Of a DNA stretch of 64,000 nucleotides, positions 2,234 through 40,445 are shown one piece after another. The notes beneath the pieces were generated by a model, which was not told the DNA's origin, ran no database searches, and was given only the letters and a program-made list of their open reading frames with translations. Source of the stretch: Marsupella aquatica. Lineage: Eukaryota > Plantae > Marchantiophyta. The position numbers and the translations under genes were made by a program. Positions within the stretch are counted from its first letter, which is position 1; the number at the start of each line of letters is the position of its first letter. The DNA lies in the NCBI GenBank assembly GCA_973895155.1, contig OZ316897.1, positions 17,766,457 to 17,830,456 on the forward strand, in the 5' to 3' direction.

Positions 2234-3820
2234 CTATGAATATTCAATCGGATCTTTCTCTACATCATCCAGTACTTCTGCCTCTGCATGGTGCACGCGA
2301 GCCTTGACTTTTTCAGCCTTTTTCGTCCAGTTGCTCTTGAAAGTGATGGTTGCTAGTGCCACCATTTGTAGTCCCAGGCCAACAATGAGTCCAGTGAAAA
2401 GACCTTTTCCAGCCCATTTAAAGTGAAAGGCCAAGAGAACCCCTACAGGGACACCCACTCCATAGAAAGTTGCCAAGTTGGCCAACGCCCCTAGATCTTG
2501 CCATCCTGCGCCACGGGCGACTCCCGAAAGCACGCCTTGAATGCTATCGAAGAAAGACAGCACGGCAATAATGGGCATGATAGTTGCCACGTATCCCACC
2601 ACTTCAGGGTCACTGCTGAAGACCCAGCCCCAGACATTGCGTGATAAGAGCAATAAACTAGATATAATACTGGCCTGAACTGAGGAGATTCCCACCACCA
2701 CATACACAGAAACTTTTGCTGCATTCGGCTCTCCTGCTCCAAGGTTATTTGAAACCCTGGTGCTTGCAGCGGCACTAAGTCCGAAAGGAATCATATAATT
2801 GAGCGTCACTGTATTCAAACAAACAGAGAGAGCAGAAAGCTCTAGCTCCGGATTCGTTAATAAGCCCGCCAGCATCACCATCACCTCAAAGCACCAATAC
2901 TCCAGACATATCATCGCGCCAGACGATGCTGCGAGCTGCAAAAAAGGTTTCAACTCAGAAAAGGCCTCCGTCGTCCATCCAGCGCCCCATGTTTCCTTGC
3001 ACGCGCCCGTACCCCTCACATAAAGAAACAAAAACACCACATTTAACCAATACGAGATACTTGTAGCCAGGGCTGCGCCACGAAAGCCCATCCCTAATAC
3101 GTGGATGATCAGCCAGGATAAGACCGCATGGAGACCTAACGAAACCGCAGAGCATATGACCATGGGCGCCACAACACTCTGGGTTTGTAAAAATTTGATA
3201 AGTGGCTGAAGCGCAGCACTCGCAAAAAGAGCTGGGAGTAGCCAGATTGCATATTCTCCAGCTTTGGCCGATATTTCAGGTGTCTGTCCAACCATGAGGA
3301 GCAGTCGCTCCATGTAGAAGAACACGAAACTGAGGGGAATACAAGTCACATAAAGCACTACCAGAGCTCGTTGCAGATAAACCCCTAGCTTGGGATACTG
3401 CTCTGCCCCATAGGCCTGCCCACAGAAAGTCTCCAGTGCACTTGCCATACCCAACAGGACGTAGAAGCCAAGCACACTGGCGATGGAGTTGGCAAGAGAG
3501 GCGCTAGCAAGCTCCAGCACGCCCAAATGCCCTGCGAAAATGGTCGATACCAAAAGAATAGAATACTGCAACACATTGACAAGCACCATTGGCCCCGCGA
3601 TCTGAATCTGGGTCTTCGTTTCAGCTTTAATATAAGTGTAATTTACCACGAACTTCTTGTCTGTCTCTTTCCAATTTCCAGCTGATTCCTCCACCTCTTC
3701 TGTTGGTGTGGGTTGTACGGCCTTCTCTTCTGACATACCACCAGATCCATCCTTGACAAAACTTCGTGACGATTTTTGTGATGACGAACGTAGAAGAGGC
3801 TCCTTCAATGGGCTCCACAT
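2234..3820 (-). CDS. MATE/DTX-family efflux transporter, intronless (~528 aa from ATG 3820; alternative ATG 3736)
   Basis: Uninterrupted ORF with plant MATE motifs GHLGVLELA, LGMASALETFCGQAYGA, LEYWCFE, STRVSNNLGAG and QGVLSGVARGAGWQ, plus many hydrophobic segments. The track's start at 3907 is not an ATG. An N-terminal KEPLL follows ATG 3820. Confidence 0.93.
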   Translation of the reverse strand: MWSPLKEPLLRSSSQKSSRSFVKDGSGGMSEEKAVQPTPTEEVEESAGNWKETDKKFVVNYTYIKAETKTQIQIAGPMVLVNVLQYSILLVSTIFAGHLGVLELASASLANSIASVLGFYVLLGMASALETFCGQAYGAEQYPKLGVYLQRALVVLYVTCIPLSFVFFYMERLLLMVGQTPEISAKAGEYAIWLLPALFASAALQPLIKFLQTQSVVAPMVICSAVSLGLHAVLSWLIIHVLGMGFRGAALATSISYWLNVVFLFLYVRGTGACKETWGAGWTTEAFSELKPFLQLAASSGAMICLEYWCFEVMVMLAGLLTNPELELSALSVCLNTVTLNYMIPFGLSAAASTRVSNNLGAGEPNAAKVSVYVVVGISSVQASIISSLLLLSRNVWGWVFSSDPEVVGYVATIMPIIAVLSFFDSIQGVLSGVARGAGWQDLGALANLATFYGVGVPVGVLLAFHFKWAGKGLFTGLIVGLGLQMVALATITFKSNWTKKAEKVKARVHHAEAEVLDDVEKDPIEYS

Positions 3821-6800
3821 TATGTTCCAGTTGATGTATGTAGTCACCAAGCGCAAGTACTCCATATATTGATATACTTCGTGCTGTTGCCTTCGAATTA
3901 AAAACAACGCTTAAAACAAAGACGTAACTGCAAATTACATTTAAGTCAACAATAGAAAGTAATCCTCGAGCAATTCCTCCCGAGTCGAATAGATTTGCGT
4001 ACTATAGGTTTGACAAGAGAGAAGCTCTAGAGAACTCGGCGCGCAGGCGAGCGAGATAAATTAAGCAGCATTATCGGCATTGAAGAATTACTCCGCTACT
4101 CTTTAACAAGAAGTAGCCAGGCAGTTCTCAGTGCTCGATCTGCATCCACAAACAAAGCGTTTAGGGCTGATCTAAGCTAAGTCTAGCTCAACAGCCAGCA
4201 TTGATGGATCATAACATCTCCGACATCATTTCTGGTCCAAAAGGTAAACATCGCAGTGGACGAGTAAAGCCGGCATGTATCACTTCAAGCTTAATTTCAA
4301 TTCAAAGGTGTTGAACGTAACGGATTGTTGGAGAGCATCTATAGAGAGAGTAAAATGAGGGATAGAGCTCGAGGGCATCAATAGAGAGAGTATTAAATTA
4401 GACGGAGGGACAGATCTCTAGGAGAGAAAGAGTGGTGGGAGGGTGGGGGGCGGGGTCAGGTCCTTATGTACGAATTCATTCTGCTGCCGCTGATTGAAGC
4501 CCCGATTGAAGCAATGGTGCGGCTGACCTAACCTTCAAGAAGTCCAGGTAGCCACTCGTCCTACAACATTGCTGCTAATTGAGAAAACAAACGACGAATG
4601 ACATTTCAAAGGAATTGCTACTGATCGACTACAACCGGGTACTTTCATCGAATAGATTCTGCCTTTTACAATACTGGAGCACATACTGGCCAGGAAAACC
4701 ACAGATCTTGGGCAAAAGCCTAAAGCAGTTACAGGACCTACCAGTGAAGCCGCTTTAGCAACATTTGCTTCATTACTCGCTTCTATCATTTAATTTTTAA
4801 AAACTTTTAGTATGATCGTTGACATATACAACTGCATCGATCCCCGCATCGATCTACGTTACGGAGCAGTCGGGTGACCATGCCCAGGTAGGGACGCTAA
4901 TATGCCCAATGACTACAATTATTTCCTGTCAGGTTTGATAATTCAGTCCTATCGAATTCTTGGGAATTGTCGTCTACGATATCGTCACGAGCTGAGCTGC
5001 AATTGGTGTGAGGGTCTGTTTATGCACGAGGGAAGATGTTCACGATTTATTTGATTACATGACAATTAAAGGAAAGACAATTAAAGGAAAGAGCGGAAAT
5101 GGAAAAGTGCATGGAAGACCGTACTTAGAAGTTGTCATCGTATCCTGTGATATCAAAGATGACTGGAAACCCAACATACCCGGCATGAGGCTGCACAATT
5201 TTAACAAAACAAATTGACGAAAATGTTGAGCCTGGAGTACTGACATGATCAGCGCATTTGCTACATCACACTCATGCTCGAGCGAGAGAAAATGCTTAGA
5301 GTTTGAAAACTGTACATGTTCAATGGCAACTTCTGCGAGATAACAAGTCTAACTTGAAGATAGAGCACCGTTATATCAGAGGAATAGAATAATATGAACA
5401 TTTGGAAGAAAACCTCAAATTAATCTATGCGAGAACTCTTTTGAAGGTGTTGCATCCGGTCAAATCCTTCGAATCCTATCCTTTATAGATTCTGGCGGGT
5501 CTCTGCTACTTTTATTCCAGTAAGGCACCAGCAACAAACTTCATCGATGAATCAGTGGATATAACCAGTTGAATGTTTACTTCTACTCGACCTTGAGAAA
5601 ATGGAAGGTAAAACTCTCAGTCTTCAAACATTTAGAACGCCAGCAATGTCTTCTCTACCGTGCAAGAATCGTAACAATAATTTCTACACATCGAAGAGAC
5701 CTACTGTAGGATCGGCAACACGTACGTCACAAAGCTTGAGATTGGTTGCCTTGACTTCGTCCCTTCTTTCAGTGTGAAGAATTTAACAAACTAGATCCGA
5801 TCACTCCCCTGATCTACTGTACAATAACCACTTGAACTGGAATCTAGCAGTGAGCCTTACAAGCCAAACGTGTCAACGTGTGTCAAGATGGGAGAGGGTC
5901 TCCCATCATATGCAACCTCGTGATCACTTGTCAATGATGATTGTGCAGCAGCGCCAAAGTCAGCAGCAAGTAGTTCATAGAAAGTAAACAAGTCAAATCC
6001 TTCCAATATGGACCCCATAGTGTTGCGCGAATTGGGCGGGGAATTGGGCTCAGTACTGAGTACCTACCACGACGTTTAGTAGAATATCTGAGCCCCACTC
6101 GATGATCGCGTCTGACTTCGCAATCGAGCTAGTGGATCTTGCTCCAGCTTTCTATCGAGGATCGAGTCATGGAGGACTGAATAGTGCAGTAAACGGCGGT
6201 AAACACTGATGCCGAGGTACAGCTGCTCAGGCTCGAATTTGTTGTGCTCCCATTGCGCTCCCATCGAGAGAAGCAGCTATTCCTGAACTTGTGTACCGAC
6301 GTCTAGAGTGGGAGTATGGAAGTTGCCCTTATCCGAGCTTAGCCATGCTGAGTGTCTTCGAGGTAAGCCATATTGGAACGGAGGTCGGGAGTGTGAAAAC
6401 GAGAAGTGACTTGGGTCTACGCAACGAATTCTTGAGAGCGCATTTTCGCACGGGTCAGAATGGTGGCCACTGAAGTTGGCAGCAAAGCTCCTCAAGTCCG
6501 AGCAATTCAAGGCCATAGTATTGGGTGATTGGAATGACAGAGGCCAGCATGAATTCAAACCGGAAGGAGGGGTCTCGGTCGAGCCAGCTTTAGCACTCTC
6601 ACAATCGATGAATCGACTCTATTGTTGACTCAGCTCAGACCTGTGGTGCACTCTGGCATAAAGACTCATAATTACTTTCCAAGTAAGGTAATGCACAGGA
6701 GATAATCGTGACACATATGTTGTATTAATTTGTCTCCAAAATATGATTGTTTCGATGATAATTCTTTATAAGACGATCTGCAATGGCGGCTTGCTTTTGG

Positions 6801-8421: not shown

Positions 8422-9230
8422 CTGTGAGAGATGCGACTGCTCAGGGTCCCTCTGGCTCTTTGATATGCGTGTGGCGGGAGGTGGTACTCGAGTTACCTGG
8501 GCCCCCATCACAGCGGCTACAGGTGGATCTTACCATGGTTCGTGAGGATCAACGTACTTTGGCAGATGTAGTGGTGGCAAACCCATTGCGCCAAGACATC
8601 ATTGGGACAGTGGCAACAACGGCAGGGGCAGCAGCGACACGTGTGGCAACAACGAAGGAGGCCAAATATGTTGCACAAGCTTCATCCTACAACTTCCTCC
8701 CCCTTGCCGTTGAGATATTCGGGCGTCTTCATCCTCAGTTTGATGGGCTTCTTCGGCAAGCTGCCCGGGATGTTCATGGCCGAATGGGTCCCACCGGACC
8801 CTTGCTATCTATTTTGACCACGCACTTTTGCCAACGTATTTCAGTCACCTTACAGAGTGCTCAAGCTCGGGCCATCTATCGTCAATCTCTTACAATGGGT
8901 GCTAGTGTGCCCCTGCAGCGGCTAGCTCCCCTAGAGGATGTTCCAATCCCACTTGCCGATCTAGTTTCAACACTTGATGTGGACCATTAGCTTTTGCCAC
9001 ATTTACTAGGAATGATGAGGACCTCGGTCCGTTAGGGTTAGTTTTAGTTCCTCTTTCTTGGTTTTTAGGGGTTCCCTATTGTTCATTTCTTACTTTTAGT
9101 TTCTCTTTCTTGGTGTTTAGGGGTTCACTTTTGTTCACTTCTTTTAAGTTTTGTTTTGTCCCCTTGGACCCTCTTTTGTTTGTTCTTTTGTACTCTGTTT
9201 GGTCCCTTTCTATAAAAGGTGTGTATATAT
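8422..9230 (+). mobile_element. 5'-truncated RLE-type (CRE-like) non-LTR retrotransposon, copy 1
   Basis: ORF remnant 8424-8990 has a restriction-like endonuclease signature (VDLTM..LADVVV..KEAKY..FLPLAVEIFG). It is closely similar to 39626-40430, including the T-rich 3' UTR. Confidence 0.7.
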
Positions 9231-10869: not shown

Positions 10870-13175
10870 TAGACAACCATGACCACCTGCCAGAGGGGCT
10901 AAGATGGTAACAAATTAACCACTGATTTGCTACGAGAACAATTGCCGGAGTAAGATTTGAAAATCTGATACACACCAGCATGTGTGATGTTGGTCATATG
11001 CATCCAAGTACGTGAACACATATTCTTTCTCATTTTGGTGAAGGGTCCGAGCTCTATATTCTGATTGTAACTCAAGGTTTCATATTGTATGGCTTCCTCA
11101 TACGGTCTCCGTCTCTCCAAGAACGTCAACGCTCTGAAAGCAGAGGAGATCATCCTGTCTACTGTAATCGATATATATATCGTAATTGGAAGAGGACATT
11201 GGACGACATAATCCGAAAGCGAGCCTCGATCAGCCTTCAAACCATACAACACCCGATTGAATTTGCACTCGGCACTGAAGTCCTCGTCAGGGATAAACCT
11301 AAGAGGTCAACGTCCAAGCCTCACATCTATGGTAGCCTATTAATTAAGCCAACTTATCTTCATTCTGCTGAGTCCTGCACGGGGGAAGGCGCGCCTTTTG
11401 GAATTTCACTATTATTTTGATGGAATGAATGGATTCGCCCACCCATGTTCTTGGAACCAAGAGGATTGAAAGAGTTTTATCCTCTGTACTAATAAATATC
11501 CACCGAAAAACCTGTCGACCCAGACCGCCATGCCTCAGTGCTACTCTCTCATTTCTCCTGTCGATCAGTATCTAGAATATTTTTGGTCCTGAATGTCGTC
11601 AGATCCGGTCTAAGCTTACATACAATCCTTGATAATGCTGTCAACTACAGCAGTTCCTTGCAGACCGCGTACCCGAATTCGCACACTTGCTTGTAACGGG
11701 GCTTGTAAACGACTTGCCTGACTTACTTTCATTGCAGTCGGGTATCAGCATCTTGATGCCAAACTCCTCTCCAGTGCGCGAGGTGCTTATCGAAGAGACC
11801 ATTGGCGCAGTGGAAATTGATATAATTTCTCTTATCGTCCTCCAGAGCGTAGTCATCGAATGACTGGGTGACAGTCTTAATTTCGAGTGTAGGGGCGTAA
11901 GGATAGTCCGAGCCATACGTGATTTGGTTGTTGGGGATAAATTGGAGGGTGCTGGGAAACGCAGACGGGCTGGACGAGAGGGCTGTGTCCACGTAGAACT
12001 TCTTCATCTCCTTCGACTTTGCCTCAATTTGGTGTTCCTCACCAAGGAAATAGGCTATAGATCCAGCCATTCGGCTCGCAGCAAACGGGAGAAACCCTCC
12101 TGAGTGAGCCAGAAGGAACTTAATGTTTGGGTAGCTTCCAGTGACGTTCCTAATCACCAAGAGCGCTGCAGCACGAGTCGTATCGAGCAAGAAGTCGAGC
12201 ATATATGCATGTACTTTAACTTCCTTCCCTCTGACGTCAGTTGTCACAGATGGGACGCCGAAAAGTGTGCTCGGATGAACGAAAACTACAGCCTGACGGG
12301 CGTCCAACACCTCCATGAGAGGATCGAACTTCTTACTACCCAGATACTCGCCGAGTGAGTTGGCCATCAATGCCACTCCCGCAGCCTTGAGCGTGTCCAA
12401 AGCGTAGATGGCTTCTGCGACGGACCCCTCCACATCGGGCAGAGTGAGTGTGGCGAAGAACTGGAAGCGCTCGGGGTATGCCAGCGTGATCATGTGCCCA
12501 TACTCGTTCAAATCCCTCGCTAATTTTCTACTGTCCTCCACGTCGTCGAAGGGTGAGAATCTCGCACCTGGGGTGGAAACAGACAGAATCGAAAGTTCGA
12601 TGTTAAGGGAGTCCATGAATGCGAGATGGTCGTCCGGATCCCACTTCGGAGTCCACTTCGGATTGAATGATCCTCCAGAGCTCAGGCCCTTTGCGACCAA
12701 GAAATCGCGGTAGAAAGGTGGAATCATGTGTGCATGTGTATCGATTCGGATGAGTTTCGCTTGAGTTCCCATGGGAGAGAAGAACACAACAACAAACAGA
12801 GCAACGAAAAGTGTGGAAATGCTCGAACTGGTCTCCATTGCGATCGTCGTTGTTGGAAATGGATCGATTATGAGCTCACTGCAAAGGCCACAGAGAAGTC
12901 AATCTACCCCCCAAAAAAACGTGAATGCTCGACGACATTCTACTCTCACAATTTCGACGGTATTTGTCATACTGAAGCATTTATCTCGGTCTCAGCTATG
13001 TCAAGAGCAGACCAGCATCTTTCCTACATGGGAAGTGAGAGCTTCAAAGCACTATTTGACCATACCAAAACAATTCGCAAACGGCATTCACAAACCAACT
13101 TCACAAGTTTCATATTCAGGAGCTGGACGTGAAATAACTCCCATGCCACCGAGGAGGAAAAGAATAAGCACTACA
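10870..13175. repeat. Tandem segmental duplication unit A, part 1 (amidohydrolase with flanks); paralogous to ~31660-34050
   Basis: Collinear shared strings, e.g. 'gaccacctgccag', 'ctccgtctctccaagaacgtcaa.gctctgaaagcagagga', 'gtcgtcagatccggtctaagctt', 'catgccaccgaggagga'. Confidence 0.85.
11729..12838 (-). CDS. Amidohydrolase_2-superfamily enzyme (aromatic acid decarboxylase / ACMSD-like) with N-terminal signal peptide, copy 1, 369 aa, intronless
   Basis: Motifs RIDTHAH (HxH), VFVHP, LAHSGG, YVDTALS and GSDYP. The N-terminus is hydrophobic (LFVALFVVVFFS) and ends in TQA-K. ATG and TGA are intact. Confidence 0.88.
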   Translation of the reverse strand: METSSSISTLFVALFVVVFFSPMGTQAKLIRIDTHAHMIPPFYRDFLVAKGLSSGGSFNPKWTPKWDPDDHLAFMDSLNIELSILSVSTPGARFSPFDDVEDSRKLARDLNEYGHMITLAYPERFQFFATLTLPDVEGSVAEAIYALDTLKAAGVALMANSLGEYLGSKKFDPLMEVLDARQAVVFVHPSTLFGVPSVTTDVRGKEVKVHAYMLDFLLDTTRAAALLVIRNVTGSYPNIKFLLAHSGGFLPFAASRMAGSIAYFLGEEHQIEAKSKEMKKFYVDTALSSSPSAFPSTLQFIPNNQITYGSDYPYAPTLEIKTVTQSFDDYALEDDKRNYINFHCANGLFDKHLAHWRGVWHQDADTRLQ

Positions 13176-22512: not shown

Positions 22513-22596
22513 TCATAGTGGTAATGCCATGGAAGAGAAGAACACAACAACAACCAGAGCAACGAAAAGTGTGAAAAGCCTCGAACTGGTCTCCAT
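22513..22596 (-). pseudogene. Third amidohydrolase copy truncated to its signal peptide (METSSRLFTLFVALVVVVFFSSMALPL*)
   Basis: 22528-22630 matches 12770-12872. Homology stops at about codon 23 and unrelated sequence supplies a TGA. Confidence 0.8.
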
Positions 22597-23754
22597 TGCG
22601 ATCGTCGTTGTTGGAAATGGATCGATTATGAGTGAATTCTACCCTCAAAACAAAGTGAAAACTCGACGACAATCTACTCTCACAATTTACAATTTCAATT
22701 TCTACGGTATTTGTAATCCTGGCACATTTACCTCGATCTCAACTATGTCAAGAGCAGACTAGCATCTTTCCTACATGTATAGTACGTAAGAGCTTCAAAA
22801 CACTATTTCCCCATACCAAAACAATTCACACACGGCATTCACAAATCAATATCACGAGATTCATATCATGCACAAGCTGGACGCCAAACACCTCGCATGC
22901 CAGCGAGGAGGGAAGGAGAAAAGTGACATTTGCCTGTAGCTAGATAAGAACTCGCTTTTAATTGGGTTGCAAACCCATCTAAATACCATGCAGGACATAA
23001 TCCGGATTACTCGAAGGGTAAGCACAGGCTGCCTAGACAGTGAGGGCCCCAGTGAGGCCTGTTTTAACTCGATCTCACCAATGAAGGCGGAAGTATCTCA
23101 GTCGGATCTATTAATAGTTATTTGTTTGATTACCATGGCTCACGATGACTTACACAGAAAGATGAAAGATGTGCAATTATTCACATCCTTCTATCATTAT
23201 CATGCAAGGGCAAGTCGAGTGGAAAGCTCTATATATAAGGTATCTTTCCCTTGAGAAGCAGCTCGAACCTCCCAGACTGCTCGATTTTATTAATGTTCGC
23301 ATCCGCTTAGACCTCACGAATTTTGGATGATGGGTACGTGTAACATTCGTGTTCGACTGAGTTTCTTCGTTTCGCGTTAGGGTCTTGATAATTTTCGTTC
23401 ATGAGCTCGACTGGCTGCATGGGCATGCCCACTGTGACAAACCAGCTTGGCTGGGAATGGCCCGTGTATGGGACCGGCTGGGACGAATGAGAAGACCGCA
23501 CTTCGTACACATTACGAAGAGGATTTTTGACTGGCTGGCACTCTACCGAAAAACATGAAAGGGGTAGGACTTATTACTCAGCTTACAATGTGTGTCTCGT
23601 CCCGGTCGCGCTGCATATGTTCCCAGCAGGGGGGCTTCGTGTGTTTTCTGTGGCGGTTTCTATCACTCCTTAGTCATGTTCTTGGACCAGTTTGACCCGA
23701 GGAAGTTTGTAAGACTCTAGCTGAACAATTGGGCTCAAATTGACTCCAAGTAAC

Positions 23755-23985
23755 TGTTGGAACTAGTGGTAGCGACTATTAGTCTATCTTGCTACGAAGG
23801 ACTAAACAGGAGGAGCCACTATAAGTAGAGAGAAGGACCGAAGGGGACCTAGAGGATCGATGGCAGAGCCAGGAGACCTAAGATGGACCGCTAAGATAGT
23901 GGTAGAACTAAAGTAGGGAGAGAGGCGCCGAATCAGGTGGTAGTAGGGCCGGTCCGTAAGGATGCCTTACGAGATAGTTTCAACA
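23755..23985 (-). repeat. Copia-1 3' LTR (231 bp)
   Basis: tgttgg...ttcaaca. Differs from the 5' LTR by 2 substitutions and one 3-bp indel. PPT (agaggggg on -) is adjacent at 23986-23993. Confidence 0.96.
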
Positions 23986-24037
23986 CCCCCTCTCGAGTAA
24001 GGAAGCGAGAAACTGAGAGCAACAAGGAACCAGTCGA

Positions 24038-24514
24038 ATGAAGGTGATGTCGATTCGTAAGGGGCTGGTGATGCTGGTGAGTGGCACCGTGGAGGTGTTG
24101 GCGCAGATTTGCCGCTTGTTGTATGTCAGTTGTGAAAAATTGGCCCGATGGATGCGGGAGCAAGATGCTCAGGAAGAAAATTTCAAGCCGAAGATGGAAG
24201 GAGCACCGCAGGTGGTGCAGCCAATAGCGTCGTTGAGGTCAGTTGTGCAGCAGCCGAGTGTACCTGTACAGATGCAGATATTTCCGGTAGGAGTCGGTGA
24301 AAAAGGAGAGGGGCAATGGATGCCTATGACGTATAAGCATTGCTTTTATGCTGTGGCGGTAGGAAGAAGGCCAGGAATATATAGAACCTGGGTAGAAGCT
24401 AATGAAGCGGTGGTCGGATACCCCGGGAATTGTCATCAGAGTTTTCGAACGCTAGCAGAGGCGGAGTATTTTCTGGAAAAGAAGGGAGATATAGGAAAGG
24501 ATTGGATGGAGTAG
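24038..24514 (+). CDS. Copia-1 antisense extra ORF, 158 aa, with C-terminal RNase H1 N-terminal hybrid-binding / Cauli_VI-like domain
   Basis: True ATG with an in-frame upstream stop at 24014, ending in TAG. aa 103-146, FYAVAVGRRPGIYRTWVEANEAVVGYPGNCHQSFRTLAEAEYFL, fit the FYAV..GR..G(I/V)(Y/F).TW.E....V..(F/Y)P.....F....EA..F pattern. Confidence 0.8.
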   Translation: MKVMSIRKGLVMLVSGTVEVLAQICRLLYVSCEKLARWMREQDAQEENFKPKMEGAPQVVQPIASLRSVVQQPSVPVQMQIFPVGVGEKGEGQWMPMTYKHCFYAVAVGRRPGIYRTWVEANEAVVGYPGNCHQSFRTLAEAEYFLEKKGDIGKDWME

Positions 24515-24531
24515 AAGAGTAGATAGCGGAA

Positions 24532-27500
24532 TCAAGGAGACCTGATATGTATGTCGGAAATGGATTTCACTCCAATAAAGAATCGATGTTTCTCAAATTT
24601 CTGTCGTGGAAGTGGTTTTGTGAGAATGTCTGCTGGGTTTTCATTTGTATTGATGTAGGACAAGGTGATTTCCCCCTCTAGCACCCGTTCTCGAATGAAG
24701 TGGTGCTTCCCTTCAATGTGTTTGGTGCGAGCATGGAAGACAGGATTTCTAGCTAATTTGAGTGAGCCTTGGTTATCACAGTGGAGATGAACATCGGCAG
24801 TGCTGGGTGTGGAGGCGTGAGCTAGATCAGAGTGAATGATAGGGTTGGAGGAAACAAGGGGTACCTTGAGAGGAGAGGTAGGATTGATTTCTGATAGAAG
24901 GCGACGGATGTGAACCGCTTCTTTTGCCCCTTCAGAGAGCGCTTTGTATTCAGCTTCGATAGTGCTGTCAGAGACTGTTGTTTGTAGTTTGCTAGACCAG
25001 GATATGGGCCCACTGGCGAGTTGGAGTAGATAAGCGCCACGAGAGCGCCGTGTTTCGGTACAGCCAAGGAAGTCAGCATCGGTGAAGCCTTGTAAGTTGG
25101 TAGTGGAGGAACGAAAGAAGGTGAGGCCGTGGTCAGTGGTACCGTGTAGATATCGAAGAATGTGCTGAACGGATTCCCAATGCCTGGTTTGTGGAGAGCT
25201 CATATACCTGCTCACGATGCCTACGGCATAAGAAATATCTGGCCTGGTGTGAGTGAGGAAGATGAGCTTGCCAACGGCGTGACAGTAGGCAGTGGTATCA
25301 AACGGAGCAGAATTAGTGTCAGAAGTTAGAACGTGTCCTTCTGGTAGGGGGATAGGCGCGCTGGTGGTGATGGCAAATTCCTTAACTAATTCCTGGCAAT
25401 AGGATGTTTGATGAAGCATCAGGCCGGTGGGAGTGTGAAGAAATTCTATCCCAAGATATTTCTGCGCTAAGCCAAGATCAGTCATTTGATATTTGTTTTT
25501 CAAATGAGTTTTGATGTTGGCGATTTTCTCTGGATCACTACCGGTAATCAAAAGGTCATCAACATATAACATGAGAATTATTAGAGCACCCTCAGAGTGG
25601 CAGAAGTAGAGATTGGGATCAACGGTACTACGTGTCCAGCCTGTGTCTCAAAGGTGTGAATCAATCTCACTGTACCATTCACGAGGAGATTGCTTGAGCC
25701 CGTAGAGGGACCTTCGAAGTCGGCATACCATGGTCTCTTTCCCTGGAAATTCAAAGCCTTGTGGTTGCTGCATATAAATTTCTTCGGTGAGAGTCCCATT
25801 GAGAAAGGCCGTAACGACGTCCATGTGGTGTAACTCCCATCCATTGGCAACAGCGAGAGCAATGATGGCACGTAATGTTGACCATTTGACAACAGGAGCA
25901 AATGTTTCGTTGTAGTCGATCCCAAACTTCTGTTCAAATCCCCGGGCAACTAGTCGTGCTTTGAGTCTGAAGCGAGTGGAGTCAGGTTTTGCACGGAAGA
26001 CCCATTTAGCTGTAAGTGCTCTACGTCCTGCTGGTAGATAGACAAGATCCCAGGTTCCCATGTCAATGAGAGATTTGATCTCAGATTGCATGGCTTTTAC
26101 CCATTCGGGGTCTTGTAAGGCCATTGCGACAGTGAGTTTAGCGCAGTCGGGGCCAGCAATTTCGACAAGATGTGTGCTCATTTCATAATCGTGATGCCAA
26201 GGTGGGATCTGCCGAGTGCAAAGTGAGCGACGAGTAGCTGGAGGTACGGTAGCAGTTGAAGGATTATCAGGAATATGGTCCAAGACCGGAATATGGTCCT
26301 CCCGTGCTGGCGCTTCAGTGGGGGCCCCCTCTGGAGCAGGAAGGTCGGGAAGGAGAGCGTCGTCGTTGTTGGCTGCAATGGGAACTGCTACCAATGGTTG
26401 AGGGTCGTCGGTGGTGGCAAGGTCGTCAATAAGGACTGATTGAAAAAGATTGATGACATCATAAGGGTCAGGGTGGGAGGCACCCATAATGTTCTCATCA
26501 AAGGTGACATCGCGAGAAATGAGGATGCGGCGACGAGTTGCATCATAACAACGATAAGCTTTGGATTCATCATCATAGCCGAGTAGTGTGGTGCGAATGG
26601 CTTTTATGCCGAGTTTGGTTTGGTGGGAGGGAGGAATTAGAACATAAGCTGTGCAACCAAGGATGCGGAGATGACTGAGGTCCGGTTTGGAGCCAGTGAT
26701 GGCCTGAAATGGTGTGCATTGGTGAAGAGCATGAGTTCCAGATTGATTCTAGAGATAGTTAGCAGAGCGGATGCTTTCAGTCCATAGTTGAAGAGGAATG
26801 CTAGAGCTGATGAGAGTTGCTCGTGAAGCTTCGAGAAGAGTCTGATTCTTGCATTCTGCAATGCCGTTTTGATGTGGGGAGTGGGCAACGGTGAATTGAC
26901 GTCGTATGCCATGTTGGTTGCAGAATGTGAGAAAGTCGGTCGACCGGTACTCCCCCCCCCCTCTATCAGAACGGAGGCAACTGATGTTGAGATTAAATTG
27001 CTTTTCCACCAAAAGTTTGAATGCTTTGAACTTGTCAAAGGTTTCGCTTTTGTAGGTGAGAAAATAGACCCAAGTGAATCTGGTGAAGTCATCGATTAAT
27101 GTAAGCATATACTTGGCGGAGGTGGGACCACGGATGGGTCCACAGAGGTCAGTGTGGAGCAATTCAAGAGGTCGAGAGGTCCGCATAGTGGAGTGCTTGG
27201 GAATTTTTTCCCGATGGTGCTTTGCCACCACGCAGGTATCGCAGACTCGCTGGACACGCGGAAGAGCAGGTAGACCAGTGACGAGTGAGCGTGCAGACAT
27301 GTGATGGACCATCTGATAGTTAACATGCCCCAGCCTTCGGTGCTAGAGATCAATGCTATTGTAGTGGGGCACTGCTGGAATTGGATTGTTGGAGATTTCA
27401 GTGAGCAGAATGGGTGACATCGTGGGTGATGTCGAAGACCGTCGATGTTGAGGACGCGGTTGACGAAGCTTGTAGAGCCGAGTGCGTGAGTCACGGAACC

Positions 27501-28842
27501 CCTTCAGAAACATACGCTTTGGATTATCTTTGTCAAATACAAAGCAAGACTTGGAGTTGAACAAGATGGGATGTCCTGCGTCTGTGAGAGAGCCAATAGA
27601 CAACAGATTTCTCTGCAGACCCGGGACGTAAAGAACCTTGGTAACCTCTTTATTTTTATCGATCAAAATGGTGCCGTGGCCAGCAACAGGTAGTTTGGTA
27701 CCGTTAGCAGTGCTAACAGAGCCAGAGTGAGAGTTGATAGCTATAGTGCGGAAGACAGTGCTATCTCCGCTGACATGGGTGCTTGCCCCGTAATCGAGGA
27801 TCCATTCACTCGGACTGTGGCTAGCGGTGTCTAGCTCAGAGAAATTAGCTTCAAGAGTCTCACCATCATGGTAGACGTCGGAATCGTAGTCATCGGTGTA
27901 GTCATAGGGGACTTCAGCAATATTTGCTTGTGGTTGGAAGCATCGGATGCCGGCTGCTTTGAGCTGAAGATCTGCAATCTGAGTATCTAATTTCTTAAGG
28001 TCACAGTCAGGTTCCCAGTGGCCGTTCTTGTCGCAATAGTTACAGTTGCCAATGCAACGTCCATGGCCAGCGGCAGAAGTGCGGGGTGGAGTGCGAAAGT
28101 GCGGAGTTTGGTGTGGTGGAAGGTTGTCACGGTCAGCGCTGCGTGAGTAGTCAGGTCGTGGTTGGAAGTGCCCCCGGCCTCGGGGAAATGAGCGAGTGAC
28201 GGCAAAGGCCTCTTCGGTAGTCTCAGCTTGCTTCCCTTTCCTCCAATAATCATCTGCCTGGAGTCGTTCGATGAGATTGGAGAACGTAGGCTGTGGAGAG
28301 CGGGAGAGCTCGGAGCTGAAAATGGACACGAAGGGACCCCAGCTGAGTGGCAAGCCTTGTAGAACTATGTGGATGAGACGTGTCTCATCGACTGCGGCAT
28401 TGATGCTAGATAGTTGCCCAGCTAAACCATTGATCTGATTGATGTAGAGCTCAACAGATCCGCCGTCGTTCAGGCATGTAGTCTGAAGTTTGTTGAGTAG
28501 ATGTATCTGGCGTTGCAAAATGTCGCCCCCAAAGCGGAGTTGGAAGTGCTCCCAGCACTTGGCAGGGTCATCTGAATACTTGTCGACAGTCGGTAGAAGG
28601 TGAGTCCTCACAGTGGAGGATAGGACAGCAATGGCTTTGTCCTTCTTCTTCTGCTTCTCTTGTGCCGTTAGATGCGCCCCTTTATCCGTGAAGTTGCCAT
28701 TGGCGTCAGGTTTGACACCAAAGTTCAACTCGTGGAACAGGTCATCCCGTTTGAGAATGTTCTTAACTACGATGGCCCAGGTCAGATGATTGCTGGAGCC
28801 GTCGAGTTTGTCGCAGTCAGAGAAGATCTTGAGTAATTCCAT
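24532..28842 (-). pseudogene. Copia-1 gag-pol, one reading frame with three premature stops (27343, 26749, 25648)
   Basis: Gag knuckle CNYCDKNGHWEPDC; protease WILDYGASTH; L*HRRLGH; integrase HTDLCGP, SDRGGGEY, QNGIAE; RT KARLVARGF and LYVDDLL; RNase H DADF, EAEY, CDNQ, ADILTK. All track fragments share a single frame. Confidence 0.95.
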
Positions 28843-29214
28843 ACTGAAGAGAAAGGCAAGAAAGAAAAAAAAAGGAAAGAAAGGAAAGAAAATAAAATAA
28901 AATAAAAATGAAACAAGGTAATGATGATTGCTAAGAGACTCGAGGAGCTTTCACTCGAACGAAGTAATAGAGCTATTCTATTGTATCAGGGACCTTGTCA
29001 ACCTGAAGAGTGTTGGAGGACTAAGTGTCAGTGACTGCGTGTATTCTAATCGTGCAGGGAATATCTAGTCCTGTGAGTGTCAGGGAACTTTCGACCTGAG
29101 TGCACAGTAATCTATCTGAGAAAATAATTCTAGAAGTGTGCAAATGTCAGGGAACTTCTCGACCTGCGCACACAATGTAAGTCTGACTACTAGAGTCACT
29201 ATTCATCAGAGCCT

Positions 29215-29227
29215 GGCTCTGATACCA
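29215..29227 (-). promoter_or_regulatory. Copia-1 primer-binding site (tRNA-iMet)
   Basis: TGGTATCAGAGCC on the minus strand, directly after the 5' LTR. Confidence 0.95.
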
Positions 29228-29461
29228 TGTTGGAACTAGTGGTAGCGACTATTAGTCTATCTTGCTACGAAGGACTAAACAGGAGGAGCCACTATAAGTA
29301 GCGGAGAGAAGGACCGAAGGGGACCTAGAGGATCGACGGCAGAGCCAGGAGACCTAAGATGGACCGCTAAGATAGCGGTAGAACTAAAGTAGGGAGAGAG
29401 GCGCCGAATCAGGTGGTAGTAGGGCCGGTCCGTAAGGATGCCTTACGAGATAGTTTCAACA
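29228..29461 (-). repeat. Copia-1 5' LTR (234 bp)
   Basis: Near-identical to 23755-23985. Confidence 0.96.
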
Positions 29462-32400
29462 GTAACAGCCTTTCAACGTCTAAACAGCTATCCCTCAACC
29501 AGTATGACCCGTGCCTGAAAGATTTCTAGCTAAGACCAGCTGTTGACCATTGCCACTTCCCTCGCTCAAATTTGCTTCTCAATGTCTCCTAGAACGGCTA
29601 TCCCATACTTCATTCTCTGTTACTACCGGCACCTAGTTACAAACACTAGGGTATTCCTCCCTACCTCCAGCCCATTTGTGGCCCTGATAGTGACAGTCTC
29701 AGTTATGCTTACCTTGGTTATGAGCTCTTATAACTTAGTACCCTTACTATCACTCTTCTAATGCCATGATTACCCTAATTTGATTGCTAATATCATCAAC
29801 AGTTAGTGCGTACAATTTCAACTATTCTGGACAAGGGCCGTGTCATGGGTTAATGAGTTTGACAAAATAGAGTTCCTTAGCAGACGACAAAATTAGTGGG
29901 TCATTGTAGTGTGCGAGTAAACAGTAACAATTTTACTTGCACGAGCAAATGTTTTCTTCACATGACCCCTAATTTTACTCTTTTTTTCTTTTTTTAATTT
30001 ATTCATGACCCCTAATTTTACTATATCCAATTGCCTAGCTAGCAAGAACCTGGTTGATAACATACATTTTTAGGACTCCTCTTTTTGCTAGCCACTTGCC
30101 AGCCAGCCATCTGGAGTCATAAAAAACACAAAAAATATAAAAGGCAGAAGAAAAAAAAAAACCAGTATGAGTGTCCAGCTTGTTCACCACATGTTTAGTT
30201 TGATTTTATATGATATACATGCCCACCTCACGGGTTCCTGACATTGGTACCCACTGATCTTGGATAGTTGAAATAGTGTTGGCTTGGTGGTTATGCAATA
30301 TAATTATGGGTTAAATTTGAAGTTTCATTATTGTAATTAAGTTTGTAAGTGTGTCAAGGTTATTACAGCAAAACTATTGGAGATTTAGAATATTGTGTGA
30401 ATCTCTAGAAGAATCTAAATCTAGTTTGGCCTAATTAAACCAGATTTGCTCAATTGAGTAAAAAACTCTAGTAAATTGTTTTCCAATTTTAAATCATTCC
30501 ATGGTTCCATCAGTATGCTTTGAAGGTTCTTGTGTGCTTTAGTTGTGTGTACCGTAGTCATGTCCCGAGTCATGTATAACTTTGCCATCCTGACAAATTA
30601 TATGCCTTTGCCTGATTTTTGCAAATTTCAATAGCACAAGTAAGATGCAGTTCCAAATCACCCACCTACCCCCTGACCTACCCACTTAGTTGTAGTTCCT
30701 CAAAAGATAGAATGTTTAAAGAAGTACTTACTAGTAGTTACAGACCCCCATGACAAGTCTCTTGCAAAATTCCTAGCACATTGTTGGCCACCCCAGCTAT
30801 TTCCGCCATAAGACAAACATTTCTATTTGTGACAAAGAACAGACACTCCCATTTGTGTTTGTCATAGCACCGGCATGAATGGTTAGACCAGAATGGTAAA
30901 AAAGTTGGAAAATTGAAAGCAAAATCCAAAATAACAAAGTAACTAAGAGTACGGGTAAAAGAAACCTACTATACTAACCCTATTCTAAAACTTTTGACGC
31001 ATTAAAAAATAATGTTTTCTTCACTTTGGATCAGTGGAATGATATGCATGCAATGGTTATATGCAATGTGGAGTTCCCCAAACAACCCATCCTTCTCTCA
31101 CAGTAGGTTATCATGAAAAAAACAAGTCATATCTGACTTTTCTAACCTAGCGCCCCATCTTGGCATTTCCAAGTCCCCATTCAGAAACTCAACTACGAGT
31201 GTTCACTTTTGTCCCACACACACCTTCACACAAGTGCTCACACACGAATGATCTGGATGCTCCATTTAGGAAAATCTAATGGTTGAGGAACTATAGGATG
31301 ATGTGGATTATTCACAGAATTTATAAATATGCCAAGGTCTCTAACTGGACATGTCATCAAGTTTGAAACCTTAAGTGCCTTGCTAAACAACACCCTCTTG
31401 CTAGCAAAAGTCCTCTTTGCTCGCATTATACAATACCTTGGCTCATTGGAAGGTGGTCAATGGAAGGCTCATTGGCAGGCTAAAGAAATTTAGAGACTCA
31501 TGATCTCGTTAGCATTTTACAAAATTTCTTCATATCAGATTCATTAGAAAGCTAGAGAGATCTAAGCTCACACATGAAATTTCTCAAGAGACTAGCTGAA
31601 CACGACAACAGCCACCGTTCAAAAGACACAGCAAGGAAACATTTGGCGAGAGAATTGTTTGGACTAGACCACCTGCCAGCCACAGGGGCAAACAGGATAA
31701 CAAATTAATCCCTGTTTGCTAAAACAATTGCCGAAAAGAGTGAAATTTGAAAATCTGACATACTCGAATTCTTAGAGGATGTGTGATTCTCATCAATGCA
31801 TCCAAGCTAAAACACATTCTCACACATAATGGTGAACGGTGCGAGCCTCGTTCACATTCTCAATGGAGCTCAAGCCTTCGTACTGTATGGCATCCTCGTA
31901 CTGTCTCCGTCTCTCCAAGAACGTCAATGCTCTGAAAGCAGAGGAGGTTATCCTGCCTCCGACCGATGTGCCGTAACTGGAAGAGGCCGCTGGAGGACAC
32001 ACTGAGAAAGTTTGCCTCAGCCCTTAAACAAACCTGCACCAGGTTGAATTTGCACTCAGCACTGAGGTCCACGTCACGAACAAACCTAAGAGACCAAGGT
32101 TCACGGCTTACATCTATGGTAGTCAATTTATTAAGCCAACTGCAACTTACTTACTGCTGCGTCCTGCACAGGGGACGACCAGCCTCTTCGAATTTCACTA
32201 TTATTTTGGTGGAATGAACGAATTCGCCCTTTGTGATCAACCTCTCGGGACAATGTTCTCAGGACCACGAGGATTCAGAGAGTTTTATCTATCTACTGAT
32301 ATATATATATATCAAACTGCAAAAAAAACAGAGGTCGCCCAACCGGGACACAAGATCCCTCAGGCAAACGACCCAATCAAGGGGGGGACCAACAAGGGCC

Positions 32401-32632: not shown

Positions 32633-33742
32633 TCACTGCAGTCGGGTGTCAGCATCTTGATGCCAAACTCCTCTCCAGTGCGCGAGGTTCTTCTCGAAGA
32701 GACCATTGGCGCAGTGGAAATTTATATGATTTCTCGTCTCGTCCTCCAGAGCGTAGTTGTCGAATGACTGGGTGGCATGCTTGATCCCAGGTGTAGGGGC
32801 ATAAGGATAGTCCGAGCCAAACGTGACTTGGTTGTTGGGAATGAATTGGAGGGTGCTGGGAAGCGCAGACGGGCTGGACGAGAGAGCTGTGTCGACGTAG
32901 AACTTCTTCATCTCCTTCAAGTTTGCCTCAAAGCCCGCCTCAAAGTTTTCGTCACCAAGGATATAGCCTATAGTTCCAGCCATTCGACTCGCAGCAAACG
33001 GGATAAACCCTCCTGAGTGAGCCAGAAGGAACTTAATGTTTGGGTAGTGTCCCGTGACGTTCCTAATCACCAAGAGCGCTGCAGCACGAGTCGTGTCCAG
33101 CAAGAAGTCGATCATGTATGCGGGTACTTTAACTTCCTTCCCTCTGACCGCAGTTGTCACAGATGGGACGCCGAAAAGTGTGCTCGGATGAACGAAAACT
33201 ACAGCCTGACGGGCGTCCAACACCTCCATGAGAGTATCGAACTTCTCACTACCCAGATACTCGCCGAGTGAGTTGGCCATCACTGCCACTCCCGCAGCCT
33301 TGAGCGTGTCCAACGCGTAAATGGCTTCCGCGACGGACCCCTCCACGTCGGGCAGCGCGAGTGTGGCGAAGAACTGGAAGCGCTCGGGGTATGCCAGCGT
33401 GATCATGTGCCCATACTCGTTCAAATCCCTCGCTAATTTTCTACCGTCCTCCACGTCGTCGAAAGGTGACAATTTCGCACCTGGGGTGGACACGGACAGA
33501 ATCGAAAGTTCGATGTTAAGGGAGTCCATGAATGCGAGATGGTCGGCCGGATTCCACTTCGGAATGATTAGCCCTCCTGAGCTCAGGCCCTTTGCGATCA
33601 AGAGATCGTAGTAGAAAGGTGGAACCATGTGTGCATGTGTATCAATTCGGATGAGTTTCGCTTCAGCTCCAATGGAGGAGAAGGTCGCAACAACAAACAG
33701 AGCAACGAAAAGTGTGGAAATCCTCGAATAATTGGTCTCCAT
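32633..33742 (-). CDS. Amidohydrolase_2-superfamily enzyme with signal peptide, copy 2, 369 aa, intronless
   Basis: Same motifs as copy 1 (DTHAH, VHP, AHSGG, GSDYP); signal peptide ends in AEA-K; ORF intact. Confidence 0.88.
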   Translation of the reverse strand: METNYSRISTLFVALFVVATFSSIGAEAKLIRIDTHAHMVPPFYYDLLIAKGLSSGGLIIPKWNPADHLAFMDSLNIELSILSVSTPGAKLSPFDDVEDGRKLARDLNEYGHMITLAYPERFQFFATLALPDVEGSVAEAIYALDTLKAAGVAVMANSLGEYLGSEKFDTLMEVLDARQAVVFVHPSTLFGVPSVTTAVRGKEVKVPAYMIDFLLDTTRAAALLVIRNVTGHYPNIKFLLAHSGGFIPFAASRMAGTIGYILGDENFEAGFEANLKEMKKFYVDTALSSSPSALPSTLQFIPNNQVTFGSDYPYAPTPGIKHATQSFDNYALEDETRNHINFHCANGLFEKNLAHWRGVWHQDADTRLQ

Positions 33743-39349: not shown

Positions 39350-40445
39350 TGTCAAACCATATTATGTGGAATCCCGTCCAAAACGTCTGTTTACAAAATC
39401 ACTTCTGGAAGGGCGCAGGAGGCTGGCTTCAGGCCAATCCAGTCATTCCTCACCTACGGATGTCTTCAGCGGAGTTTGCGACAGCCATGCGTCTTCGTAT
39501 GGGCTTGCCCCACCCACTTCTTGCTGGTTTACCTCCTACTTGCACTTGTGGGAAACCTTGTGATGCCACAGGTGTCCATCTTCTTCGATGCAGTTTGGGC
39601 GGCGAAACCATTTTTATTCACGACGCTGTGAGAGATGCGACTGCTCAGGTTCTCTCTGGCTCTTTGGTCTGCGCGCGGCGGGAGGTGGTGCTCGAGTTAC
39701 CTGGTCCTCCATCACAGCGATTACGGGTGGATCTTACCATGGTCCGTGAAGGTCACCGTACTTTGGCAGATGTAGTGGTGGCAAACCCATTGCGCCAAGA
39801 CATCATTGGGACAGCGGCAACAACGGCAGGGGCAGCAGCATCACGAGCAGCAACAACGAAGGAGGCCAAATATGTTGCACGAGCTTCATTCGATAGCTTC
39901 CTGCCCCTTGCTCTTGAGATATTTGGGCGTCTCCATCATCAGTTCGATGGGCTTCTTCGCCAAGCTGCTCGGGATGTTCACGGCCGGATGGGTCCCACCG
40001 GGCCCCCGCTATCTGTTTTGACCACGCACTTTCGCCAACGCATTTCAGTCACCTTACAGCGTGCTCAAGCTCGGGCCGTCTATCGTCGATCTCTGACAGT
40101 GGGTGCTAGTGTGACTCCGCAGCGGCTAGCCCCCCTAGAGGACATTCCTGTCCCACTTGCCGATCTAGTTTCGACACTTGATGTAGACCACTAGCTTGTT
40201 GCCACATTTGCTAGGTATGATGAGGACCTCGGTCCATTTGCGGTAGTTTTAGTTCCTCTTTCTTGGTTTTTAGGGGTTTCCTTTTGCTCACTTCTTTTAG
40301 TTCCTCTTTCTTGGTTTTTAGGGTTTCCTTTTGCTCACTTCTTTTGCGTTTGGTTTTGTCCACTTGGGACCTCTCTTGTTTATTCTTTTGTACTCTATTT
40401 GGCCTTTTCTCTGTAAAAAGTATGTGTATATATTTTATTTTATTT
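39350..40445 (+). mobile_element. 5'-truncated RLE-type (CRE-like) non-LTR retrotransposon, copy 2
   Basis: GAGGWLQANP..EFATAMRLRMGLP, then CCHC finger CTCGKPCDATGVHLLRC, HDAVRD, and RLE core RVDLTM..ADVVV..KEAKY..PLALEIFG. Followed by a T-rich 3' UTR and a short (tattt)n tail. Confidence 0.75.

Follow-up and report, generated by a model that had tools for sequence, protein, structure and literature searches.

The window analysed here, a stretch of 64,000 nucleotides, carries a Copia retrotransposon in which the space between pol and the 3' LTR is occupied by an open reading frame (ORF) on the opposite strand, and the question that the locus raises is whether this ORF is an accessory gene of the element and, if so, in what manner its product might serve the element. 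The original prediction had placed a 158-aa ORF within the LTRs and the target-site duplication (TSD), with 52 bp separating the ATG from the edge of the LTR and 17 bp separating its stop from that of pol, and the coordinates and the TSD found in the present analysis agree with this geometry (Table 1). When the bases of the 546-nt gap were shuffled, an ATG ORF of at least 158 aa arose in 3 of 5000 trials, which together with the Pfam score given below rules out a chance ORF. It is also the sole match to the family profile within the 64-kb window. The alignments with homologs begin only at Met4, which makes 24047 the probable true start.

Table 1. Coordinates of the Copia element and of the features of its antisense ORF within the window.
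Feature	Position	Strand	Remark
Left target-site duplication, GTAAC	23750..23754	.	
3' LTR, 231 bp, TG...CA	23755..23985	-	
TATA-like motif, the sole one in the LTR	23820..23827	+	Oriented towards the antisense ORF; weak hint
Polypurine tract (PPT)	23986..23994	-	
Antisense ORF, putative accessory gene, 158 aa	24038..24514	+	Between pol and 3' LTR
Predicted N-terminal hydrophobic/amphipathic helix, aa 3-48	24044..24181	+	Conserved in P0001, P0003, P0005
Predicted disordered, fast-diverging linker, aa 49-99	24182..24334	+	
RNase H1 N-terminal hybrid-binding domain (Pfam PF01693 Cauli_VI), aa 103-146	24344..24475	+	
gag-pol, single frame, Copia order gag-PR-INT-RT-RH	24532..28842	-	
AATAAA, 60 nt past the ORF stop, within the pol end	24574..24579	+	Possible poly(A) signal; weak hint
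Premature stop within RT	25648..25650	-	X1 contigs agree
Premature stop within integrase	26749..26751	-	X1 contigs agree
Premature stop ahead of the integrase HHCC region	27343..27345	-	X1 contigs agree
Primer-binding site (PBS)	29215..29227	-	
5' LTR, 234 bp	29228..29461	-	
Right target-site duplication, GTAAC	29462..29466	.	

The element, of about 5.7 kb on the minus strand (23755-29461), has LTRs, a TSD, a PPT and a PBS, which we take to be of the tRNA-Met type, and its two LTRs differ by 2 substitutions and one 3-bp indel. Pfam matches along gag-pol in the order Retrotran_gag_2, Pol_BBD, rve and RVT_2 assign it to Ty1/Copia; its RNase H carries the D-E-D-D motifs, and no hybrid-binding domain is fused to gag-pol. 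A PDB sequence search with the RT-RH segment gave no match, and the RNA fold near the PPT is unremarkable (z -1.4). The gag-pol of the window copy is broken by 3 in-frame stops, and this copy cannot be autonomous. Assembly error as the origin of the stops was ruled out, because contigs from X1, a run that may be the source of the window, show 0 differences at all three sites. An empty site is present in runs X3 and X4, where a joint skips 5712 nt (the element and one TSD); therefore, the insertion is recent and polymorphic. Marks of a nested element (a second LTR pair or TSD) were not seen in the gap with the 20 largest repeat families and blastn (LTR pair only).

In the 5' leader of the element, a motif of about 21 nt was noticed by eye that occurs twice in near-identical form and once more in part (29060-29180, minus strand), and contigs from all four runs contain a joint across 29099-29205 of this leader. 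Another joint in runs X3 and X4, from 23826 to 29291, links LTR positions over 36 T-rich letters and perhaps represents a solo or related LTR carrying an insertion.

The ORF product had been expected to combine a helical N-terminus, a linker and a Cauli_VI domain, and all three parts were recovered. Pfam Cauli_VI matches aa 103-145 at E 8.8e-17, with a score of 61.5 bits where the cut-off is 21. AlphaFold predicts a helix for residues 3-48, a linker of low confidence for 49-99 and the domain for 103-149, and two structure models are concordant in showing a long N-terminal helix, then a disordered linker, then the domain; their mean pLDDT is 57.5 and 64.4, with 73-88 across the domain in the second model. 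The predicted structure of the domain has the three-strand, two-helix fold of PF01693, with human RNase H1's hybrid-binding domain (3bsu) as the top PDB fold match (rmsd 1.3 A over 44 columns, E 0.015), and by sequence the domain matches yeast 1qhk (E 3.5e-6) and human 3bsu (E 8.7e-5). A wide fold search yielded nothing but generic long helices (Z <6).

The resemblance to the RNase H1 domain in sequence and fold extends to the equivalents of human Y29 and W43, both of which are kept (the latter as W118). The differences are that a catalytic domain is absent, that the hybrid-binding domain follows a helix and a linker at the C-terminus, and that human F58-K59-K60 is represented by H-Q-S (Q134-S135), the binding lysines being replaced. 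The place of K59 is held by K or R in 288 of 371 other domains (R in P0148) and by Q in 41 of the 371. The KK59/60AA change has been reported to impair hybrid binding by the human domain, and in the same report an HBD-GFP fusion is diffuse as a single copy, while three copies in tandem form foci and mark R-loops (PMC10639055). In the 9 family members Pfam found no catalytic RNase H domain, and no family other than Cauli_VI was matched by more than one of them.

Homologous proteins were searched for with a profile in 1.84 billion representatives, giving 7608 matches at E <=0.001, and the 150 of these listed are mostly proteins with repeated domains. Single-domain proteins account for 11 of the 161 compared, and 9 of the 11 (including the query; six clusters) are 129-163 aa long and carry a hydrophobic helix at the N-terminus and the domain at the C-terminus; the family members listed are annotated as 'hypothetical protein' only. 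P0001/P0005 and P0003/P0153/P0154 show 43% identity over 92-93% of length. Word-indexed searches likewise matched P0001 and P0003 near full length and P0002 over the domain only; the helix-linker-domain layout is shared by P0002, P0148 and P0119. A profile of the N-terminal part matches only the query, P0001, P0003 and P0005, and in profile comparison P0002 and P0148 align across the domain alone.

A FastTree phylogeny of 360 domains (about 50 columns) groups the nine family domains with a support of 0.78; the sample is skewed in favour of the query, and an IQ-TREE run that did not finish put one unrelated domain within the family group. The domain is 47-50% identical to those of the caulimovirus translation transactivators (TAVs) and 45-57% identical to those of cellular RNase H1, the identities to all candidate origins (host RNase H1, caulimovirus or other) being similar (39-57%). 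Longer fused forms were not found among 7993 candidates, which is weak evidence. A scan of metagenome contigs with a degenerate motif gave 20 loci, none matching the gag or pol of the element, and scans of viral contigs and prokaryote genomes found no relative, save one unrelated viral locus. A 255-kb viral contig (L001, 6001-6843) encodes three tandem hybrid-binding domains, and the domains of three metagenome loci (L004, L006 and L015) likewise read H-Q-S-F; these four loci are without a match to Copia gag or pol.

The original prediction had also appealed to the intactness of the ORF. In the window copy this carries no weight and was rejected as evidence of selection, because at the decay rate of gag-pol (3 stops in 1436 codons) 158 codons have a 72% chance of being free of stops. 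The stronger evidence comes from conservation in sister families. At 80% likeness, 8 joints from runs X1, X3, X4 and X5, belonging to three studies, were listed, of which 7 join the domain to a flank (four the PPT to the domain region, three the domain to the pol end) and the eighth crosses the linker; their sides are 21-62 letters long, except for the linker joint (233 in X1), and short sides can stem from repeats. A 711-nt X1 contig holds the PPT, the ORF and the pol end at about 85% identity, with the middle of the linker unalignable, and differs from the window at 46/312 and 34/233 sites (14.7% and 14.6%). The best-matching divergent pol contig differs at 224/1632 and 29/276 sites (13.7% and 10.5%), divergences that are close to those of the X1 contig; the two contigs are taken as the same family. 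An X5 contig differs at 13/134 sites in the domain and at 8/62 sites at the pol end, the spacer between them being unalignable.

The reading frame in these families was followed through the loose ends of contigs that fall inside the ORF, 9 of the 10 listed (48 further rows fall beyond the listing) being in register and stop-free as judged by eye. Those in register in or near the domain carry residues known from the homologs, and in one loose end from X4 the conserved Trp does not fall in register. Synonymous changes make up 6 of 12 differences in the helix and the domain versus 4 of 21 in the linker and the tail, a count that takes singly the 33 ORF differences among those listed (40 of 104 rows) and is not a dN/dS estimate. 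The closest sister family (X1) has 86 linker letters versus 90 in the window, plus one unplaced insertion, and one X1 contig joins the PPT to pol and lacks a match to the domain at 85%. Retention of the ORF in sister copies is thus observed as far as the linkage of PPT, domain and pol in divergent contigs goes, and is qualified by the one or two sister copies that may be frameshifted. Taken with the full-length homologs, this retention in divergent sister families upholds the earlier reading of the ORF as an accessory gene, and on these comparisons it is very likely that the ORF is under selection as such.

Two other explanations bear on the same data. The ORF could be a passenger, a piece captured once from a host RNase H1 gene or some other mobile element and now decaying, as the chance expectation for the intact window copy and the possible frameshifts would allow; Helitrons in Pleurotus have been reported to capture viroplasmin domains, and PF01693 is reported from a fungal Helitron (PMC4289320). 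However, the domain is still alignable and in register where the spacers on both sides diverge beyond 80%, and the homologs of 43% identity retain the helix and the domain in one frame, which makes a decaying passenger the least probable of the explanations considered here. Alternatively, the antisense RNA or its protein could restrain the copy number of the element, since regulatory roles have been proposed for the antisense transcripts of LTR elements (PMC7264820) and the contig depth over the ORF, close to that over the flanks, fits few copies, although depth is not copy number. Such self-limitation is considered very unlikely, as conservation falls on the protein features (helix and domain) instead of being spread evenly over the RNA, and control by RNA alone needs no captured folded domain.

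Action of the product through nucleic-acid duplexes is somewhat favoured. A tentative proposal within this frame is that a nuclease-free hybrid binder shields the RNA:cDNA hybrids of the element from the host RNase H1. The ORF would be transcribed from the side of the 3' LTR, its product would bind hybrids in spite of the H-Q-S change, and the nuclease-free domain would act as a decoy on the RNA:cDNA hybrids of the element, competing with the host RNase H1. A lone domain binds poorly in cells; therefore, a self-associating helix would matter, and self-association or anchoring through the helix could supply the avidity that is missing from a single domain. In yeast, loss of cellular RNase H has been reported to increase Ty1 RNA:cDNA hybrids and mobility, and direct cleavage by host enzymes has been proposed for Ty1 hybrids (PMC4214602; PMC7524711). 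Competing for such hybrids would be the simplest benefit to a Copia element. If the shielding holds, the host RNase H1 would be a restriction factor that is actively countered by plant retrotransposons. The full proposal, in which a plant Copia clade encodes a self-associating, nuclease-free mimic of the RNase H1 hybrid-binding domain, antisense from the 3' LTR, as a counter-defence protecting reverse-transcription hybrids, is doubtful in its entirety; if true, it would describe a transposon-encoded antagonist of RNase H1 restriction.

The loss of the two binding lysines also suits a different reading, in which the product is a TAV-like host effector that binds TOR, eL13 and eL18 instead of hybrids and boosts translation or blocks the autophagy of particles. 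The homologous dsR domain of the CaMV TAV has been reported to bind TOR, eL18 and eL13 (PMC5902531). The top BFVD match of the product is a caulimovirus TAV (165 columns, E 3.7e-4) with the same order of helix and domain, and P6/TAV has the same Pfam domain, with an N-terminal helix and a linker ahead of it. Most of the matched TAVs are, in contrast, 420-530 aa long and possess additional domains for the binding of eIF3, RISP and eL24, and Copia has no polycistronic RNA; reinitiation would be unnecessary, because gag-pol is in a single frame. The long TAV alignments have an rmsd of 15-33 A and an identity of 12-22%, long helices in general match one another, and the identity of the domain to TAVs is no higher than that to the cellular RNase H1 domains. 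An effector of this kind is therefore regarded as unlikely.

The same viral protein was the basis of the anti-silencing role suggested in the original prediction. Spelled out, such a product would sequester dsRNA and hide sense/antisense duplexes of the element from Dicer-like proteins. Any antisense transcript is complementary to the genomic RNA, and the TAV motif is reported to bind dsRNA and hybrids in vitro. However, the dsR domain of CaMV P6/TAV is described in the same source as dispensable for RNAi suppression (PMC5902531), which weakens the analogy, and its binding of TOR, eL18 and eL13 supports the protein-binding alternative instead. Since the product has a single domain only and a reduced basic patch, a silencing suppressor appears decidedly improbable.

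A service to the element's own enzyme was considered as well, in which the product would act in trans on the RT-RNase H as a subunit for processivity or targeting, held on Pol or Gag via the N-terminal helix. The presence of the D-E-D-D motifs in an RNase H without a hybrid-binding domain of its own would accommodate such a subunit, and for plant RNase H1 this domain, together with a disordered linker, is reported to serve the catalytic domain (10.1101/572842). Against this, ordinary Copia elements function without such an ORF, and none encoding a hybrid-binding domain was found in the second Copia of the window (45013 to ~51370). An RNase H fused to RT is, moreover, already kept on the hybrid by the RT. 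This subunit is accordingly held to be rather improbable, and the shielding of hybrids by a nuclease-free binder is retained as the preferred, though tentative, reading.

The position of the ORF relates it to a known class. Grande (with gene23), RIRE2, Retand and PvRetro13 are Ty3/Gypsy elements that carry antisense 3' ORFs (PMC7264820; PMC4408406), and the present ORF resembles these Gypsy aORF-3R/eORF-3'R (which include that of Ogre) in being antisense and in lying between pol and the 3' LTR. The Gypsy ORFs are kept across copies and families, the present one being retained in several divergent contigs, and the function of antisense 3' ORFs has been called unknown, partly as their products resemble no characterised protein (PMC7264820). 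The known products carry Transposase_28, PMD, DUF390 or SMC-like domains, whereas the present ORF belongs to a Ty1/Copia element, is only 158 aa long and carries PF01693. It is probably a member of the antisense accessory-ORF class, unusual in its occurrence in Copia and in its defined nucleic-acid-binding domain. In REXdb the sole clearly readable Copia entry for eORF-3'R is 1% of SIRE, the rows for Bianca and Ikeros being ambiguous, and the present case would extend the class to Copia, where that large survey ignored ORFs of <250 codons (PMC6317226).

The comparison drawn earlier with the sense env-like ORFs of Sirevirus stands as a difference, and is incomplete in that it omits the antisense 3' ORFs known as a class in Gypsy. 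Sirevirus (SIRE) elements have a sense env-like ORF after pol and a length of about 10 kb (5.6-16 kb), whereas the present element measures 5.7 kb, has an LTR of 231 bp and carries its ORF in antisense, which places it outside SIRE. Other cases of an extra domain fixed in an LTR lineage, namely the AlkB m6A demethylase of orchid Gypsy elements, the archaeal RNase H of Tat and the Sirevirus env-like ORF, are similar in that respect and differ in being Gypsy or sense ORFs. Among 121 angiosperm genomes with 4,811 Copia consensus sequences, 15 frequent extra domains are reported in Gypsy only (PMC9289625), and the available text of a plant RNase H-like classification mentions the domain for RNase H1 only (10.1101/572842). 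In keeping with the earlier impression that this arrangement had not been reported for Copia, no description of PF01693 in a Copia antisense ORF was found in the literature searched, which has most subscription journals and Repbase-type annotations outside its scope. The solved and biochemically defined domain opens the ORF to direct tests of its binding, of its competition with RNase H1 and of its effect on yeast Ty1.

The gene content of the window is that of a plant, perhaps a non-seed plant in view of the intronless MATE and amidohydrolase genes described here. The second Copia, on the minus strand, is older and fragmented, and its RT-RH is 37-42% identical to that of the first. Two tandem intronless amidohydrolase_2 genes (11729-12838 and 32633-33742, both minus strand) encode proteins that are 84% identical and have a hydrophobic N-terminus, and a remnant at 22527-22917 is a partial middle copy, the copies being spaced by about 10-11 kb; the first Copia is inserted in the repeated upstream region of this middle copy. 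An ORF remnant is present in two copies of 85% identity (8424-8990 and 39364-40194, plus strand), the longer of which gave no Pfam match at E 0.1; the remnant presumably resembles the C-terminal part of a non-LTR element. An intronless MATE transporter gene of 543 aa lies at 2234-3865 (minus strand).
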